UHGV virus genome: UHGV-0125383
Length of the DNA: 29,406 nt
Strand: one strand, 5' to 3'
Source of the DNA: a virus
Both the position numbers and the translations under genes were made by a program. The notes below the pieces were generated by a model, which was not told the DNA's origin, made no database searches, and saw only the letters and a list, made by a program, of their open reading frames with translations. Below are positions 21,709 through 29,356 of the stretch, piece by piece. Positions within the stretch are counted from its first letter, which is position 1, and the number at the start of each line of letters is the position of its first letter.

Positions 21709-21917
21709 TGGGTATTACTGAAGGCTTCTGCGCGGATCTCTACTGCGATTGTGAAGGTTGCCAGTCAGGGAAAATTTATCCGCAGGCGCAGGCGGACTTT
21801 ATTGGCCGGAATATGACCGATATTTCACAGCAGGCACGTGAGGCGGGCTGGCGCATCAGCAAAGACAGAACTCGCGCATTTGCACCCGGACACAAAATTA
21901 CCAGGACTAACCCATGA
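21705..21917 (+). CDS. Hypothetical Cys-rich small protein (70 aa)
   Basis: Track ORF overlapping neighbours by 4 nt on each side. Confidence 0.45.
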   Translation: MMGITEGFCADLYCDCEGCQSGKIYPQAQADFIGRNMTDISQQAREAGWRISKDRTRAFAPGHKITRTNP

Positions 21918-23089
21918 CCACTATTACCAGATTCACCAAAGAGCAGTTAATCAAGCGCCTGGAAGAACAGCAGTCGGGAGCGCGCTATGCGTTAAGCTTT
22001 GTGCAGGATAGTGAAATCCTGCGAGATATTGAGATGGATTTGCGCATTACTGAAATCGCGCGGGCATCACTGGAGGCTGAGCCTGTATCTTTTGATGCCC
22101 TACGTGATGCCGTCGCTGAAGTTTCTGGCGGCGCCGCAATGGAATGGAGTGATATTTATAAGGGGCATCAGGCTGTGCCGTTTATCAATTTCAACTCACT
22201 GGCTCGAATCGTTGACAAGTTCCGCGCCGCCCCGCCAGCGCCTACTGTGACATTCTATCGCGACGGGATTGAAGCCGCTGCAGCGTGGGTGGACCAGCAA
22301 CGCGAGTCTTACGACAGCGAACACGGACGGCACGATCCAGGCACAGGAACGTTTGAATTCGGCAATGACGCCCAGCGCGATTACTCGGCAACGCTGGAGG
22401 AAATCGCCGAGGGTATTCGCGGCTTGCACCCCAACACCGCCCCGCCAGCGCCGGTAGTGTGTCAGGAGCCAATTGCGTGGCTTAACGACGCGTATTTAGC
22501 TCGCGGCGTGGTTGATGGGGAAGCAGGTAGCGAGGATGTAGGTCCAGGTTATATCCCGGTTTACCGTGAGCCACTCTATGCAGTGCAGCCAGCGGCGGTA
22601 GTGCCGGATGATCTAGCTAAAGCGTTCATTTCGGCGATAGAAAAAGAGCAAGATCGCCTATTCGGTGAGGATTATCTGATGGATTCGAAAGACTGCATTG
22701 ATGTAATCCGCGAAGAGATGCAGAGACTTAACGCCTGCCGCGCCGCCCTGCTTCAGGGTAGCCAACCTGTAAGTAATCGTGATGAGTTGCCGCCCAGCAT
22801 CAAATCCGCGCCAGAACTGGATTCTGTGGCTAAAAACGCTGAGTTGCTGCCCGGAAACTCTCCGGTAACTCCGGATAGTTCGGAGGATACAAAGCGCCTT
22901 GACTGGCTTGATTACCAGAACAAAAGGCTGAATGAGTATTACGGCACGGCCTACGGTTGGAAATTTGACGCGAATTTCCAGAGGAACGCAATGATGCTCA
23001 ATGACAGCAATTATCCAGTTATGACAGTTCGCCAGGCTATTGATCAGGCTATCGCATCAGCTCAGCAGCAGGAGGTAAATCGTGAATAA
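21914..23089 (+). CDS. Hypothetical phage protein (391 aa) with internal Pro-rich repeats
   Basis: Track ORF; repeated AAPPAPTVTFY / TAPPAPVVCQEP segments; no family recognised. Confidence 0.55.
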   Translation: MTTITRFTKEQLIKRLEEQQSGARYALSFVQDSEILRDIEMDLRITEIARASLEAEPVSFDALRDAVAEVSGGAAMEWSDIYKGHQAVPFINFNSLARIVDKFRAAPPAPTVTFYRDGIEAAAAWVDQQRESYDSEHGRHDPGTGTFEFGNDAQRDYSATLEEIAEGIRGLHPNTAPPAPVVCQEPIAWLNDAYLARGVVDGEAGSEDVGPGYIPVYREPLYAVQPAAVVPDDLAKAFISAIEKEQDRLFGEDYLMDSKDCIDVIREEMQRLNACRAALLQGSQPVSNRDELPPSIKSAPELDSVAKNAELLPGNSPVTPDSSEDTKRLDWLDYQNKRLNEYYGTAYGWKFDANFQRNAMMLNDSNYPVMTVRQAIDQAIASAQQQEVNRE

Positions 23090-23625: not shown

Positions 23626-24804
23626 ATGGCGGCAAGGCCAAGAAAAAAAGAATACCGACATCTGCCGGACTATCTGGTATTTGATAAAGATCGAGGTGTT
23701 TATAAATTCACACTTATTACCGGGAAGAAGAAAAATATAGGTAAGGATCGGGCCATCGCAATAGCTATCGCCAGAGAGTACAACCTGAGGATGAGACCTG
23801 AACTTTCCCCGTCGGTTGATAATCTCATTAGAGAATCTGGTGGGGTTACTGGAGAAGCCAAACCATTTGCTGAACATGTGGATCACATAATGGAACGTGC
23901 TATTGAGGACGAGCGCCCTTCTCAGAGCACCCTGGATGACTGGAATAATGACGCACTACGCGTAAAAGAGTTTTTCGTTAATGTTCCTGCCTGCGATATC
24001 GAGTTGGAGCATGTTAACGCATACATCAATCAATACCATGCCGGCGCGTCTGCGAACGTGCAAAACAGAAAAGTCAGCTTCCTTAAAAAGCTGTTTTCGT
24101 ATGCGGTCGATGAATCCCTGATGCTCGATAATCCGGCAACCCGGAAGAAAATGCGCAGGACCGAAGAGAAGAAAAGACAACGCCTGTCGCTCGATCATTT
24201 CATGGCTATCCGGCGCGCTGCAGCACCATGGTTAAGAACGGCAATGGACCTGGCTCTACAGACGACACATGCGCGCCTCGAAGTCTCGAGGATCCGTTAT
24301 TCAATTCGCGAACCCAAAAACGGTATATGTGGTTGTGTCTGGCTCGATCAGCCAGAGAACGGTATCTATGGAACACTATACATACACCGCCAAAAGGTAC
24401 AGAAGAAGGAGGCGTCGCACGTTGCGATCCCCATAGGTGATGAGTTAAAACGCATCATTGATGATAGCCGGGATAATGTGGCCAGTCCGTATGTTGTTCA
24501 TCGGATCCCGGAACGACAGGTTAAACGGAGCAAAGAAGTCTCGCATCCCACCCAGGTGGCCCCGGATTATTTAAGCAGGTCATTCTCTGCTGTCCGCGAC
24601 AGGCTCGGGTTATGCAATCACCTCGCAATGGATGAAAGACCGACCTTCCATGAAATACGAGCTTTGGCTGCTCACCTGTTTGATAAACAGGGCATAGATC
24701 CGCAAGGCAGAATGGCGCATAGCGATGCAAAGTCTACGAAAATTTATACCCAGAATCATATAGATTGGGTGGTAGTTCCACATGGCGAAATCAGAACTGG
24801 ATGA
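23626..24804 (+). CDS. int: Tyrosine integrase, lambda Int family
   Basis: 392-aa ORF. N-terminal arm-binding-like region (KEYRHLPDYLVF) and C-terminal catalytic region (RPTFHEIRALAAHLFDKQ ... AHSDAKSTKIYT) parallel lambda Int (memory). Confidence 0.92.
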   Translation: MAARPRKKEYRHLPDYLVFDKDRGVYKFTLITGKKKNIGKDRAIAIAIAREYNLRMRPELSPSVDNLIRESGGVTGEAKPFAEHVDHIMERAIEDERPSQSTLDDWNNDALRVKEFFVNVPACDIELEHVNAYINQYHAGASANVQNRKVSFLKKLFSYAVDESLMLDNPATRKKMRRTEEKKRQRLSLDHFMAIRRAAAPWLRTAMDLALQTTHARLEVSRIRYSIREPKNGICGCVWLDQPENGIYGTLYIHRQKVQKKEASHVAIPIGDELKRIIDDSRDNVASPYVVHRIPERQVKRSKEVSHPTQVAPDYLSRSFSAVRDRLGLCNHLAMDERPTFHEIRALAAHLFDKQGIDPQGRMAHSDAKSTKIYTQNHIDWVVVPHGEIRTG

Positions 24805-24809
24805 AGTGC

Positions 24810-25030
24810 ATGATTTGTCAAATGACATGTAAATGGACCACGTACCGACCTTGTCAACAAAGGCAAAAAGAACTATTACTTTAATATGTAAAATTGAAGT
24901 TCATAAGAGTGCAAGACTAACCATTTGTTTTTAAATAAAAATAAATCTTAGACTCACTTTTCTGAAACTGTACTAATCTATTGTCAAGTGCGTACCGCTC
25001 TTGGTACTATTCAGTCAACAAAGGTTTCAC
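24810..25030. other. Candidate attachment-site region (arm-type repeats) immediately downstream of int
   Basis: AT-rich. Palindrome TGTCAAATGACA (24816-24827); direct repeats CGTACCGACCTTGTCAACAAAGG (24841-24863) and CGTACCGCTC...AGTCAACAAAGG (24991-25024); TTGTCAAG (24981-24988). The GTCA-core repeats resemble lambda-type arm sites; this is inference. Confidence 0.3.
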
Positions 25031-25081
25031 AACAAACTGAAGTTCTAACCCACACAGTAGGTACAACAAGGAGAGGCTTAT

Positions 25082-25117
25082 ATGAAAAACTTCGCTATCG
25101 GTTACGGGGAAGGTTAA
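25082..25117 (+). CDS. Putative leader peptide (11 codons, MKNFAIGYGEG)
   Basis: ATG 25082 preceded by AAGGAGAGG SD at 8-nt spacing; stop 25115-25117; followed 20 nt later by an intrinsic terminator and then the 333-aa gene. Confidence 0.35.
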   Translation: MKNFAIGYGEG

Positions 25118-25137
25118 GTCTTAACGTGCATTGAACT

Positions 25138-25165
25138 AAACTCCTCATTTTGAGGAGTTTTTTTT
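25138..25165 (+). terminator. Intrinsic terminator / attenuator between the leader ORF and the membrane-protein gene
   Basis: AAACTCCTCA-TTTT-GAGGAG followed by eight T's. Confidence 0.7.
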
Positions 25166-25187
25166 CATCTTCTATAAGGTTTTCAGA

Positions 25188-26189
25188 ATGTACCGATGGA
25201 TAAAAAGTAAAACTAAAACATTGCTTGGTGTTCTAGTTGGCATCTTGATCAGCCTGATAGTTACGAGAATTTTGTTGAATGTGAATGCAGTACAAACTGC
25301 ATCTTGGTTTTACGCAGTGTTTGATGCTGGACTAATGATTACGTTCGCAACATTTACAGCTCTATACAGCGTGTACAAAATCAGTAACAAATTTCCAGAT
25401 ACAAACCCACTGTTACCTCTTTTCGGAGTCATAGTTTGGGTGCTTTTCCTGCTGGCATACTATGTACTTCGATACAATAATACTTACCAAACTGCGCTTT
25501 CAATCATTGTTGCCGGTTCGATTGCTGGGATGGGATGGTGGATCCAATTCATTACTTCTGCAGCCAGTGATCGAAGAAAACATACTTTGAATGTTGTTCT
25601 TAGTACAAGAACATGTACCGAATACCAAACTCATTTGCGTAACTTCACACACTTATGGAGAGGCAATCGCCATGCTCCAAAAGAGCTATGTGTTTGGAGA
25701 GACGACCCTGATCATCCAAAATTCAAAGATGCTAAAGTCCCTGATGAAGTCGTAAATGGGATTAACGGATTAGTATACATTCTTAATTTCTTTGAATTTT
25801 TAGCCCAAGGAATTAAGGCTAACGACCTTGATGAGAAACTCCTCCGAGAGTGCTTTTGTGGGTTTTTAGAGGGGCTTGAAAGAAGAGCATTTTTCATTCT
25901 CCTCGAAGCACAAAAAAGAGATGAACGTTACTTTGAAGGCATTATTTTCCTGTGCAAACGTTGGAATAATGAAAAATCGTTAGTTGAAAAACATCGTCAC
26001 TCAGCACCTCCTGCTGATATAGGTATTTGCCATCCATCTCAAGCAGAAATCATGAAAATGCTCGGTATTAAAGATGTGACTAATTCAAAGCCGAAAAAAA
26101 GACGGAGACGCCGTTCCGCTATAGTTCAGCAAGCGGAAGCAGCGAATGTAGCGGAACTAAATCCAACGCAGTCAGCTGCACCTCAATAA
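25188..26189 (+). CDS. Membrane-anchored protein of unknown function (333 aa): four N-terminal transmembrane helices plus cytoplasmic domain; candidate moron/exclusion factor
   Basis: Track ORF in visibly AT-rich DNA between int and the tRNA fragment. Four hydrophobic helices in residues about 10-121, a roughly 200-aa soluble domain, and a basic tail (KPKKRRRRRS). No family recognised. Confidence 0.6.
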   Translation: MYRWIKSKTKTLLGVLVGILISLIVTRILLNVNAVQTASWFYAVFDAGLMITFATFTALYSVYKISNKFPDTNPLLPLFGVIVWVLFLLAYYVLRYNNTYQTALSIIVAGSIAGMGWWIQFITSAASDRRKHTLNVVLSTRTCTEYQTHLRNFTHLWRGNRHAPKELCVWRDDPDHPKFKDAKVPDEVVNGINGLVYILNFFEFLAQGIKANDLDEKLLRECFCGFLEGLERRAFFILLEAQKRDERYFEGIIFLCKRWNNEKSLVEKHRHSAPPADIGICHPSQAEIMKMLGIKDVTNSKPKKRRRRRSAIVQQAEAANVAELNPTQSAAPQ

Positions 26190-26324
26190 TTTACTGGGGA
26201 ATAACTACACCTTAAGTCATTGATGTATATAGAGCGGCTTTTGTAAAAAATGCACTGTTTGTTTATACATACGAATGGTTAGCAACGCCAGACACGGAGC
26301 GACTTACAGAGCTTTCAAAGCGGT

Positions 26325-26372
26325 GTCATGGGGTGTCGGGGGTCGGAGGTTCAAATCCTCTCGTGCCGACCA
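26325..26372 (+). tRNA. Partial tRNA-Pro gene: 3' 48 nt only (T-arm, acceptor 3' strand, CCA); att-core relic, not a functional tRNA
   Basis: GTCATGGGGTGTCGGGGGTCGGAGGTTCAAATCCTCTCGTGCCGACCA matches, from memory, the 3' part of enterobacterial proL (tRNA-Pro GGG). The 77 nt ending at 26372 cannot form an acceptor stem (5' side reads GGAGCGA, not CGGCACG), so the 5' half is absent. Confidence 0.7.
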
Positions 26373-26383
26373 AAATTCCCCAG

Positions 26384-26414
26384 AAAAACCAGCCTTTTAC
26401 GGCTGGTTTTTTTT
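26384..26414 (+). terminator. Bidirectional rho-independent terminator just 3' of the tRNA fragment
   Basis: AAAAA-CCAGCC-TTTTAC-GGCTGG-TTTTTTTT. Confidence 0.75.
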
Positions 26415-26505
26415 ATTATTGCCGTCCACCGAAATGGAATTCGATTCGAGTTATGGACGGAAATAATGTTACACTTCCGGTTTTGCACAGCCGATCTTAT
26501 TGCTT

Positions 26506-26868
26506 ATGTGGCATCACTTCATCAAGTACACCTCCGTAGGCGTGATCAACACATTGATTCACTGGATAGTTTTTGCTATCTGCATCTACGCCTTTCATAC
26601 CCATCAGGCGCTGGCGAATTTCCTGGGCTTCAGTGTGGCGGTCAGTTTTTCTTTTTACGCCAACGCCCGGTTTACCTTTAAGCAATCGACCACAACGCGT
26701 CGCTATCTGCTGTATGTCGGCTTTATGGGCCTGCTCAGTATCCTGACGGGTTGGGGGGCCGAACAGTGCGGTTTCCCACCGCTGGTGACGCTGGTCGCGT
26801 TCTCCGCCATTAGTCTCATTTGTGGCTTTATTTATTCCAGATTCATTGTATTCAAGGACGCACGATGA
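26506..26868 (+). CDS. gtrA: GtrA, bactoprenol-linked glucose translocase (flippase)
   Basis: Track ORF 26500..26868 starts at a TTG; the ATG at 26506 gives a 120-aa product [20 protein letters not shown]... closely resembling P22 GtrA (memory). Its stop overlaps the gtrB start (ATGA). Confidence 0.9.
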
Positions 26869-27812
26869 AAATTTCACTGGTCGTTCCTGTCTTCAACGAA
26901 GAAGAAACCATTGGCCTCTTTTACAAGACGGTGCGTGAATACGACGCACTGAAAGAACATGATGTCGAAATTGTGTTCATCAACGATGGTAGCACCGACG
27001 CAACGGAATCCATCATCAACGCCCTCGCCGTCGCCGACCCACTCGTTGTTCCGCTCTCGTTTACGCGAAATTTTGGTAAAGAACCGGCGCTGCTCGCCGG
27101 GCTCGACAATGCCAGTGGCGATGCCGTCATTCCGATGGATGTCGATCTCCAGGATCCTGTCGAAGTCCTGCCGCACTTGATTCAAAAATGGCAGGATGGG
27201 GCGGACATCGTGCTGGCTAAGCGTTCCGATCGCTCCGTCGATAGCCGCCTGAAGCGAAAATCCGCCGAGTGGTTTTATAAGCTACACAATAAAATCAGCA
27301 CGCCGCATATCGAAGAAAACGTCGGCGATTTTCGGCTGATGAGTCGTGAAGTGGTGGACAACATTAAACAAATGCCAGAACGAAATCTGTTCATGAAAGG
27401 GATTTTATCCTGGGTTGGCGGCAAAACTGACATCGTCCTCTACGCGCGCGCCACTCGCTGTGCCGGGAAAAGTAAATTCAACGGCTGGAAACTGTGGAAC
27501 CTTGCACTGGAAGGGATCACCTCTTTTTCTACCTTCCCTCTGCGTATCTGGACCTACATTGGTCTGGCGGTTGCCCTGCTTTCTTTCACCTACGGTGCAG
27601 GAATGGTGATAGATACGCTTCTGTGGGGAAATCCCGTGCGTGGCTATTCTTCCTTGATTGTGTCAATCCTGTTTCTGGGAGGCGTACAGCTTATTGGCAT
27701 TGGCGTGCTGGGTGAGTATATCGGACGAATCTATGTCGAAACCAAGCAGCGGCCTCGATACATTCTGAAAAAACGTAAAACTGTGGACCACGATTCAGAC
27801 AAGGATAACTGA
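26865..27812 (+). CDS. gtrB: GtrB, bactoprenol glucosyltransferase (GT2 family)
   Basis: Track ORF 26820..27812; the real start is the ATG at 26865 ([25 protein letters not shown]...), near-identical in character to phage GtrB (memory). 315 aa with C-terminal transmembrane segments. Confidence 0.95.
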
Positions 27813-29356
27813 TGTTAAAGCATGTTAATAAAAGCATTCTTTTAATTGCCTTTTTTGCAGTATTTATCCTGGAGTGGTTCACCCCTATTCACTCCGATGA
27901 TTACCGTTATGCCCTGCTTGGCATCTCATTTGATGCGCACCTGCATCACTACCTGACCTGGAGCGGGCGCATAGTGGCTGATTTTGTCAGCTCGCTTTTA
28001 CTCGCCACCGGATCTCGTGGATTTATCTCAACCATGACCGGCCTTGTCGTCGTTGCGTTCTGCTATTTCATTGTGAAAACGCCGACGGGCACGCTGAAAT
28101 GGAAAAAACATGACGCGCTGATCTTTACCCTTATTTTTCTGACCTTTTGGGTCGCTAACCCGAATATCGGACAAACGGTTTTCTGGATAGTCGGCAGCGC
28201 GAACTACCTGTGGACGAATCTGTTCGTCGCCGCATGGCTCTGGAACCTGTACCGCATACAGCTTCAGCGTGAAGAGCGTACACACATGGGTATGCTGTTG
28301 CTCGGGCTGTTGGCGGGCTGTTCCAATGAAAGCGTCGCGCCATTTGTCGTGGGTCTTGCCCTTCTGGCTATCGTGTACGATTACTGGCAAGCGAAACGCG
28401 TCTTTGCGAATAAGGTCGCGTATTTTTTGTCCGCACTGGTGGGCGCCAGTATTTTGATTTTCTCACCAGGCAATTTTATTCGCGCTCAGGGCGCTCATAC
28501 CGTCTGGTATGATAAATCGATCGTTGAAAGAATCACAATTCATCTGAGCGAGCGCTTCTTTAACCACCTGGCGCTGGTCTGGATTTCTTATGTCGTACTG
28601 GTCTTACTGGCAATGCTTCTGATCGTGGCCAAACGACAAGGCCATCGCATTAAAAGTGCGAATCTCAACATGGTCGGCTTAATGCTGTTGGTGGGGCTGG
28701 GAACCTCTTTAATTATGGTGGCCTCCCCGTCGTATCCTGACCGCGTCATGCTGTCGACATTTTTATTTTTCCTGCTTGCCCTCTCGTTCCTTGCACGGGA
28801 AGTCGTCACGGTAGCCGGACCACGTGTCATGAAAGGAGTCTATGTCGTTACGGGCCTGATGGCTGCGGTATTCATCTGGTCATACGCGTTAATGTATGCC
28901 GCTTACACGCGCGTTTATGAGCAGGATGTTGTTCGTGTGAATATCGTTAAGCGCCAACTCAGCCAGGGTCACAAGGACTTTACGGTGCCTGACTTCCACT
29001 TCCTGAAAATGCAAAACAGCGGAGGGCATTTCGGTTTCTTTCACGATCCGCAGGTCTATGGCCGTTATTTTGCCGCAGGGAATGTGGCGAAGAAAAAAGT
29101 TAACTTCGACTACTCCGTACTCGTCAACGGTAAGCAGCAAACCATCGATGACAATACCGTGGCCTGGTTCAATCACCGCGGTGATTTAATGCTGGTGAGC
29201 AAGCATCCATTAACCGGTACCGTGCAGGTGAAGACCGAATCGTCCGATACGTCGCGCTCGCTTACGCGCTTTACCGCCGCGAAAATTAACGATGAATACT
29301 GGTATTTCAGCGCCATACCTAAAGCAGAAGTGACTCACGTCGCGCTGCTGCCCTGA
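27812..29356 (+). CDS. gtrC: GtrC-type serotype-specific O-antigen glucosyltransferase (polytopic membrane protein)
   Basis: 514-aa multi-pass membrane ORF whose start overlaps the gtrB stop (TGATG); third gene of the gtr operon. Specificity cannot be inferred from sequence. Confidence 0.65.
   Translation: MLKHVNKSILLIAFFAVFILEWFTPIHSDDYRYALLGISFDAHLHHYLTWSGRIVADFVSSLLLATGSRGFISTMTGLVVVAFCYFIVKTPTGTLKWKKHDALIFTLIFLTFWVANPNIGQTVFWIVGSANYLWTNLFVAAWLWNLYRIQLQREERTHMGMLLLGLLAGCSNESVAPFVVGLALLAIVYDYWQAKRVFANKVAYFLSALVGASILIFSPGNFIRAQGAHTVWYDKSIVERITIHLSERFFNHLALVWISYVVLVLLAMLLIVAKRQGHRIKSANLNMVGLMLLVGLGTSLIMVASPSYPDRVMLSTFLFFLLALSFLAREVVTVAGPRVMKGVYVVTGLMAAVFIWSYALMYAAYTRVYEQDVVRVNIVKRQLSQGHKDFTVPDFHFLKMQNSGGHFGFFHDPQVYGRYFAAGNVAKKKVNFDYSVLVNGKQQTIDDNTVAWFNHRGDLMLVSKHPLTGTVQVKTESSDTSRSLTRFTAAKINDEYWYFSAIPKAEVTHVALLP

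Follow-up and report, generated by a model that had tools for sequence, protein, structure and literature searches.

A conserved micro-open reading frame and a predicted intrinsic terminator precede DUF4760 membrane protein genes of mobile elements

TnaC and the Erm/Cat leader peptides are, besides MsrDL, examples of gene control mediated by the ribosome. Type III toxin-antitoxin loci such as ToxIN and AvcID follow the order promoter, antidote element, leaky terminator and effector gene, and lambda RexB and P22 SieA are inner-membrane proteins for exclusion or abortive infection that are expressed by prophages. The locus described here lies in the UHGV virus genome UHGV-0125383, a stretch of 29,406 nucleotides (nt) that is called the window in the following. 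It consists of an open reading frame of 11 codons (micro-ORF), a predicted intrinsic terminator and the gene for a predicted inner-membrane protein of the DUF4760 family. The front end of this cassette joins kinds of element that are already known, the leader-peptide-controlled genes and the prophage morons, and is not a new category. Comparison with homologous loci indicates that the micro-ORF and the terminator are an obligatory and so far undescribed front end of this family of mobile-element membrane proteins, and that the same three-part layout recurs across distantly related bacteria and phages.

Among the described systems, the MsrDL leader peptide blocks termination and release and thereby controls an intrinsic terminator (PMC10314930). 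The DUF4760 locus shares with MsrDL/msrD a tiny leader ORF directly before an intrinsic terminator of the read-through kind, as well as key residues beside the stop codon. In msrD, the stalled ribosome physically prevents the formation of the terminator in response to macrolides (PMC10314930), whereas in the DUF4760 cassette the terminator is located 12-46 nt past the stop, no conserved alternative structure accompanies it, and stalling is hypothetical. Another parallel is the mccA-terminator-mccB arrangement of microcin C, where a micro-ORF with a strong Shine-Dalgarno sequence (SD) is also followed by an intrinsic terminator (PMC4231749). Ribosome binding to the 7-codon mccA ORF controls that terminator, which gives rise to an abundant short transcript and a minor read-through transcript (PMC4231749). 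MccA is the substrate of dedicated enzymes (MccB and others), while the DUF4760 cassette encodes one membrane protein without an enzyme fold, and its peptide motif is unrelated. A microcin C-like cluster was considered and rejected, as the locus presents no MccB-type adenylating enzyme, export or immunity genes, only the DUF4760 gene and then the prophage end.

Concerning type III toxin-antitoxin loci, which have a role in abortive infection, the likeness is in the order of the elements and the location on mobile elements; AvcID is treated in PMC10511110. The antidote of these systems is a tandem-repeat RNA and the toxin a soluble enzyme, in contrast to the probable translated peptide and the membrane protein of the DUF4760 cassette. 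Tandem Repeats Finder detected no tandem repeats in 24700-26450, and an identity with type III systems was rejected on this ground. With RexB, SieA and HK97 gp15 the cassette shares being a small prophage moron that occupies a variable slot and encodes a (here predicted) inner-membrane protein. In fact, the cassette of Acinetobacter phage vB_AbaS_TRS1 occupies the slot where HK97 carries gp15, in the gap between the tail chaperone and tape-measure genes. However, gp15 was rejected as a DUF4760 member, since it has only 62 amino acids and resembles the cassette in genome position alone. None of these three proteins has a sequence or family relation to DUF4760, none is known to have a conserved leader peptide, and the DUF4760 protein matched no PHROG with an exclusion annotation. 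The EP domain that EDS1, PAD4 and SAG101, proteins of plant immunity, have in common is a further system that comes near to the cassette. The descriptions of the DUF4760 family that were found include neither a micro-ORF nor a terminator.

The elements of the cassette in the window are as follows.

24958-26271, + strand: mobile cassette, from the promoter-like site through micro-ORF and terminator to the DUF4760 gene, plus about 80 nt of 3' flank
24981-25010, + strand: sigma-70-type promoter-like site from a consensus scan, TTGTCA-18 nt-TACTAT, with TG before the -10 element
25068-25076, + strand: Shine-Dalgarno sequence of the micro-ORF, AAGGAGAGG, 5 nt ahead of the ATG
25082-25117, + strand: micro-ORF of 11 codons plus stop, MKNFAIGYGEG (ATG at 25082, TAA at 25115-25117)
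25138-25165, + strand: predicted intrinsic terminator with a stem of 10 base pairs, a 3-nt loop and T8 (core CTCCTCA/TGAGGAG)
25188-26189, + strand: gene of a predicted DUF4760-family inner-membrane protein of 333 amino acids (Pfam PF15956)

A preliminary description made from the letters of the window had pointed out the strong-SD leader ORF MKNFAIGYGEG with a hairpin and T8 20 nt later. Both are present as described, its features being confirmed with small coordinate corrections, and both extend to the whole family. About 100 loci were gathered from genomes, metagenomes, viral contigs and phage records. Every homologous locus with enough upstream sequence, on genome, metagenome and viral contigs whose proteins are 38-100% identical, carries a micro-ORF of 9-17 codons led by an SD and ending in G-[YFV]-G-E-G-stop or a variant of it, and an SD-like purine block precedes the start in 36/36 non-redundant leaders examined. 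The main clade presents about 26 peptide variants. Examples of the peptides are MRNFEIGYGEG, MQNFEIGYGEG (Cronobacter), MVFNIGVGEG (Pseudomonas), MKNTLTVGFGEG and MDKTFAVGFGEG (Shewanella). Endings in remote clades are IGCEE*, SGCFE-SGCFE*, SGCNE*, GSGCG*, GWGDG* and GFGES*, where the asterisk is the stop. The double ending belongs to four loci (L092-L095) whose micro-ORF MVITQSGCFESGCFE* contains a tandem-duplicated 15-nt unit that encodes SGCFE twice with one synonymous difference (TGC/TGT), located about 310-360 nt upstream of the match start; a further locus (L096) has the similar pair SGSNE-SGCNE. Even in phage TRS1, with a protein only 23% identical, there is an unannotated micro-ORF, MKTTKLNYRLADGYGIG*, that ends in DGYGIG-stop, with a hairpin and a T-run between it and the annotated DUF4760 gene (L106 3220-3320).

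This layout is not due to chance. The combination of G.G.G-stop and a terminator occurs 90 times on the strand of the gene in 933 kilobases of fetched loci, and 90/90 of these occurrences are followed by a DUF4760 match at a distance below 450 nt; the opposite strand has 0 occurrences. The architecture and its conservation can be regarded as practically certain, and it is very probable that the micro-ORF is translated. In the enteric clade, the leader is far more conserved than the synonymous sites of the gene in three comparisons (94 vs 73%, 82 vs 45% and 66 vs 43%), which indicates that it is under purifying selection there. No Rfam family was found at the leader, and neither the peptide motifs nor a function of DUF4760 is mentioned in the literature searched.

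Codon usage was analysed in 37 non-redundant leaders. The first two Gly codons of the motif are GGT, GGC, GGA or GGG, the middle residue is Y, F, V or T written with six different codons, and TAA, TGA and TAG all occur as stops. This variation at the Gly wobble positions, together with the use of all three stops, points to selection on the peptide. The motif keeps its place next to the stop, whereas the part before it differs in length, for a total of 9-17 codons, as one would expect if it is the residues closest to the peptidyl-transferase centre that count. Furthermore, the motif outlasts the divergence of the protein down to about 23-27% identity, which suggests an invariant target, such as the ribosome, instead of a co-evolving protein pocket. 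We take the form [T/E]-[V/I]-G-[Y/F]-G-[E/D] of the motif to resemble the selectivity-filter signature TVGYGD of K+ channels; it does precede a membrane protein, and the likeness may be a coincidence.

The hairpin that follows is AAACTCCTCA-TTT-TGAGGAGTTT at 25138-25160, with T8 at 25158-25165. It begins 20 nt after the stop of the micro-ORF (a stop-to-stem distance of 20-23 nt in the window), and its T-run ends 22 nt before the main ATG. A consensus scan gave 6 terminator-like sites, this hairpin among them, versus 1.2 +/- 1.1 in shuffles. Among the 37 non-redundant hairpins of the homologous loci there are 19 different stems, all of them fully paired, and every hairpin runs into T4-T9, so the stem covaries across the family. 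Folding energies range from -7.5 to -18, and most hairpins lie 17-24 nt ahead of the main start. The stop-to-stem distance is 12-19 nt in the Pseudomonas-type leaders and 20-46 nt elsewhere.

The promoter-like pattern TTGTCAA...CTTGnTAnnAT upstream of the micro-ORF is retained in the E. coli, Cronobacter, Pantoea and metagenomic copies; the consensus scan showed no enrichment of promoter-like sites over shuffles. An internal promoter between the terminator and the ATG was rejected, given that there are only 22 nt and that the sole weak hexamer pair is not conserved in E. coli. As this gap leaves no room for a promoter, the DUF4760 gene would be transcribed only by read-through of the terminator. 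Bypass or translational read-through from the micro-ORF into the main ORF was also discarded: stops in the same frame lie between the two, and the one GGT found shortly downstream is not in the frame of the main ORF. The micro-ORF also escapes annotation. In the commonest E. coli variant (L084 5794-6912, protein P0027) the micro-ORF MRNFEIGYGEG is not annotated, and the protein is annotated with 303 amino acids while the conserved start MYRLIKRN... lies 30 codons upstream.

Regarding the protein, no family had been recognised from the letters alone, and this did not hold. The match to Pfam DUF4760/PF15956 reaches 55.5 bits against a cutoff of 25 (E=9e-15; residues 114-259, profile positions 5-141 of 141), the same precomputed domain is found in 51/51 close homologues, and PHROGs 8946, 21275 and 2284 also match, all of them families without an assigned function. 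The family is of modest size, with 559 clusters at 50% identity in an exhaustive profile search. Beyond this, nothing but the name "DUF4760 domain-containing protein" was obtained from two large-database searches, one of them started from a diverse alignment. No match was found in NCBIfam or in a sequence profile search of the PDB, a viral structure library gave nothing significant, and the defence models of PADLOC-DB v2.0 (5027 protein models; systems described to 2023) returned no family at E<=1. In the literature searched, a DUF4760 gene appears in a single paper, as an uncommented entry among the genes of a Serratia genomic island.

The AlphaFold model of the full-length protein has a predicted local distance difference test score (pLDDT) of 81 and helices at residues 2-32, 39-68, 76-96 and 100-142. 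Three regions can be distinguished: four N-terminal helices (1-123), an all-helical domain predicted to be cytoplasmic (about 125-295) and a disordered basic tail (299-333, pLDDT<50). The four membrane helices described beforehand are thus reproduced by the model, with the reservation that only the first and the third (TM1 and TM3) are strongly hydrophobic. Lys and Arg residues are confined to the predicted cytoplasmic loops, and the topology fits N-in/C-in. The poly-Arg tail proved to be a basic run, KPKKRRRRR, at residues 301-309; it is not terminal, lying 24 residues before the C-terminus, and it is conserved in the enterobacterial clade only. The C-terminal domain modelled alone reaches a pLDDT of 91.6; its fold matches, C-terminal domains of glutathione S-transferases among them, seem to reflect a generic helical resemblance and are uninformative.

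The core of the protein is conserved from Enterobacteriaceae to Pseudomonas. It consists of a membrane helix ending in GW.IQ, then (R/K).HT.N...SR.S..YQ, and then Y.LNY(Y/F)EF.A.GI..(G/N)DLDE. Within the helices or close to them there are conserved polar positions (D46, Q101, S105 and GWW116-118), and G116, W117, H132, R141, N200, E203 and D215 are invariant even in remote members, which would point to a specific juxtamembrane site. The subfamily of the window, with four membrane helices and about 330 amino acids, differs from many other members, which have about 150-200.

The cassette of 1.3 kilobases is inserted at the end of a prophage, between a lambda-type integrase gene and a 48-nt fragment of proL. 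The surrounding features are the following.

23626-24804, + strand: lambda-type tyrosine integrase gene (int) of the prophage, Pfam Arm-DNA-bind_1 (above cutoff) and Phage_int_SAM_1
26325-26372, + strand: 3' 48 nt of the proL tRNA-Pro(GGG) gene, attR core and prophage end
26382-26413, + strand: proL terminator, chromosomal, the first strong terminator 3' of the DUF4760 gene

Between the segment 26325-26372 and the 3' part of E. coli K-12 proL the identity is 100%, and ARAGORN found no complete tRNA in the window; the segment is the attR end of a prophage integrated in proL. Consequently, the 333-codon gene does lie between int and a tRNA-Pro fragment, as had been said, and both neighbours are confirmed in their identity. 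It also lies in AT-rich DNA unlike its surroundings: the guanine-plus-cytosine content (GC) is 0.35 in the intergenic stretch 24805-25187 and 0.40 in the DUF4760 gene (0.33 at third codon positions), compared with 0.48 in int, 0.52 in the rest of the prophage and 0.50 in the gtr genes beyond it. A total of 15 E. coli genomes contain the block 24958-26271 with 87% identity, downstream of this type of integrase and with the sequence on either side unmatched, and the block behaves as one unit. The distance from the end of int to the DUF4760 gene is 383 nt in the window and 384-391 nt in the E. coli, Cronobacter and metagenomic copies. These data support the view that the cassette is a compositionally distinct, self-contained prophage cargo at the int-att junction. 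The designation as a moron, a prophage cargo gene with transcription of its own, which was made in the preliminary description, is upheld for the composition and the replaceable slot; a terminator of its own at the 3' end is missing, and the promoter-like site is present in a scan that does not exceed shuffles.

The same slot can hold another gene. E. coli EC_J_9 has the same integrase type at the same proL site with a different cargo gene of 239 amino acids (L102 1681-2400), without a Pfam or PADLOC match. Other copies of the DUF4760 cassette occupy quite diverse positions. The commonest E. coli variant is located between two DinI-like genes, near a SocA/Panacea pair and tail fibre genes and beside prfC; other copies adjoin umuDC-like and restriction-like genes. 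In phage phi467 the cassette is between two recombinase genes, in Pseudomonas phage Riah at the genome end, and in TRS1 between the tail assembly chaperone and the tape-measure gene. The micro-ORF and the terminator stand upstream of DUF4760 also at loci without an integrase nearby. The cassette was present in 31/5426 complete E. coli genomes, and is thus rare and patchy. Rarity and variable cargo slots are what one would expect for an accessory gene of exclusion or abortive infection, and a membrane effector that does harm would agree with its being tightly repressed by the predicted terminator. From this genomic context, a role in defence or exclusion is conceivable at somewhat less than even odds.

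Other observations concern the surroundings of the cassette. The space from the proL attR fragment to narP holds an O-antigen glucosylation cluster of gtrA/gtrB/gtrC-like genes (26500-29356; Pfam GtrA_DPMS_TM, Glycos_transf_2 and DUF6056). In sibling contigs that carry this prophage there are no gtr genes and the sequence continues directly into narP, hence the cluster is a separate islet beyond the prophage end. On the other side, neither Pfam nor NCBIfam has a match for an ORF of 391 amino acids (21914-23089) that precedes the xis-like gene and int; sibling prophages carry other genes in its place, an ORF of 372 amino acids and an Rv2179c-like exonuclease, which makes it a second variable cargo position. 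The chromosomal flank genes narP, ccmH and dsbE are only 78% identical to those of E. coli (L011 10341-13002, from an identical contig, vs L001), so the host of the window belongs to another enterobacterial genus.

Taken as a whole, the locus is best explained by a leader peptide that acts in cis and controls read-through to an exclusion or abortive-infection membrane effector, to which we would give a probability of about 0.4. Three functionally linked parts (its own promoter, a translated micro-ORF and an intrinsic terminator) would stand ahead of the DUF4760 inner-membrane protein. Most transcripts would be short, of about 150 nt, and contain the micro-ORF only, and the membrane protein would be made from read-through transcripts. 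The micro-ORF would most likely be a cis-acting leader peptide, and the behaviour of the ribosome at its last codons and stop would set the amount of read-through or of stable full-length mRNA. In the lysogen, the potentially harmful membrane protein would be kept low, and its level would rise upon a disturbance of translation, as might occur during phage infection. The four-helix protein with its conserved juxtamembrane helical domain would most likely be an exclusion or abortive-infection effector at the inner membrane. Regulation in cis by the micro-ORF, considered as a separate part of this explanation, comes near to an even chance.

Several results weigh against this explanation. Of three candidate pairings, each compared with shuffles and random windows in 36-37 leaders, none provides a general, conserved anti-terminator. 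Pairing of the SD of the micro-ORF with the 5' arm of the terminator gave duplex energies that were overall no better than those of shuffles or random windows (mean z about -0.8); it was always weaker than the terminator, the attraction coming from CCTCC/CTCCT in many stems, and it was above controls, weakly, in the enteric clade. Pairing of the SD and start region with the spacer after the stop was not significant. A hairpin of GAAGGY with RCCTTC, with the stop codon in the loop, reached p<=0.05 in about 19% of the leaders and in few clades. Moreover, the distance of 12-46 nt between stop and stem is mostly too long for a ribosome at the stop to occlude the hairpin, although partial overlap is possible in the Pseudomonas-type leaders. 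The motif is replaced in some clades by endings with Cys and Glu, which would be less expected if the ribosome were the sole target. The Glu codon is GAA in 35/35 leaders that have Glu, never GAG, and the final Gly is always GGY; this invariance of ...GAAGGY-stop, noted for 25113-25117 and its homologues, suggests an additional constraint at the level of RNA or decoding, one that none of the three pairings explains. Finally, the + strand has no terminator-like site from 26189 to the proL terminator. The attenuator-like layout that had been proposed is therefore sustained in its conserved leader ORF and terminator, whereas the sensing of translational stress is not: with no conserved alternative structure and a variable distance to the stem, a classical attenuator of this kind is not demonstrated. 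Nor do the codons match a controlled pathway as in attenuators of the trp/his/pyr type: three of the last five are Gly, all four Gly codons are used, and the gene downstream encodes a membrane protein without an assigned function.

Among the other explanations, the one that survives best takes the peptide as acting in trans, as an antidote, inhibitor or ligand of the DUF4760 protein. In that case the terminator would be a fixed leak that ensures a high ratio of peptide to protein, and the shut-off of host expression by a phage would lead to the loss of the short-lived peptide and leave the membrane protein active. Both the series promoter, antitoxin, terminator and toxin of type III loci and that of mccA, terminator and mccB work on this principle. 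Selection at the peptide level agrees with such a partner. The lack of a regulatory alternative RNA structure and the variable spacing between stop and hairpin both fit a constitutive leaky terminator. It is also in favour of a partner that the endings differ by protein clade (GYGEG, GFGEG, GVGEG, GC.E and GWGDG), that the pentapeptide unit is duplicated in tandem in one clade, and that the soluble domain is modelled as a helical bundle which could hold a peptide. The mccA precedent, where a terminator after a micro-ORF yields an abundant short transcript, points in the same direction (PMC4231749). Nevertheless, it would be unusual for a peptide of 9-12 residues to serve a specific function while free in the cytoplasm, and such a peptide should be rapidly degraded. 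The motif is anchored to the stop codon and not to the overall length of the peptide, it is kept at about 23% protein identity, contrary to what a co-evolving binding pair would show, and no RNA repeats are present, so that it would not be a type III system proper. A trans-acting partner is thus somewhat unlikely, and the leader peptide in cis is slightly favoured over it.

A bolder version would see in the micro-ORF either a sensor peptide of a new, ribosome-directed class or a peptide antidote smaller than any known one, which would arm the DUF4760 effector once the translation or transcription of the host is disturbed by an infecting phage. This seems unlikely at present. If true, it would reveal an undescribed single-locus system of abortive infection or exclusion in prophages and islands across Gammaproteobacteria.

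The function of the protein could also be other than defence, with the leader limiting its dosage. It might, for instance, convert the envelope of the lysogen, take part in the homeostasis of ions or of the membrane, or control the lysis or induction of the phage itself. Morons often encode fitness factors that are not related to defence. The protein matches no known or candidate defence family, the sources give no functional name, and in this host the gene adjoins the envelope-modifying gtr genes, although as a separate island, and the sibling contigs carry the cassette without them. The rare and patchy distribution, the repeated occurrence in variable slots beside toxin-antitoxin-like, restriction-like and SOS genes, and the tight repression by the terminator, as expected for a harmful effector, argue in the opposite direction and leave a function outside defence improbable.

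It is far less probable that the DUF4760 protein modifies and/or exports the peptide as the precursor of a microcin-like or signalling peptide. Substrates that are modified at the C-terminus typically have a conserved motif there, the micro-ORF and terminator are laid out as in mccA, and the partner would be in the membrane. On the other hand, a single protein without a recognisable enzyme or transporter fold is encoded, the key residues are chemically too diverse (Y, F, V, W, T, C) for a single chemistry, and there is no immunity gene or processing site. Lastly, an incidental origin of the pair, as a terminator of int transcription and a chance reading frame, could be invoked because AT-rich intergenic DNA often contains short ORFs and hairpins that look like terminators and the promoter scan was not above shuffles, but it is refuted by the comparative data, as the pair precedes DUF4760 genes in every genomic context, with or without an integrase nearby, with codon-level conservation, covariation of the stem and a strand specificity of 90/90 vs 0.

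If the peptide acts through the ribosome, G-aromatic-G-E-G-stop would be a new motif among the few leader peptides that work at termination, and its place would be on mobile elements and not with genes of resistance or biosynthesis. With an action in trans, the membrane protein would have a peptide partner of unusually small size. There are also consequences for annotation, since the micro-ORF is unannotated in all public records examined and the main start is miscalled in the commonest E. coli variant. Considering its occurrence in variable prophage cargo slots, the DUF4760 cassette can reasonably be taken as a candidate for phage exclusion that is absent from the present catalogues of defence systems. 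For the DUF4760 family, with its roughly 560 clusters at 50% identity, the conserved upstream micro-ORF and terminator represent a first functional handle.

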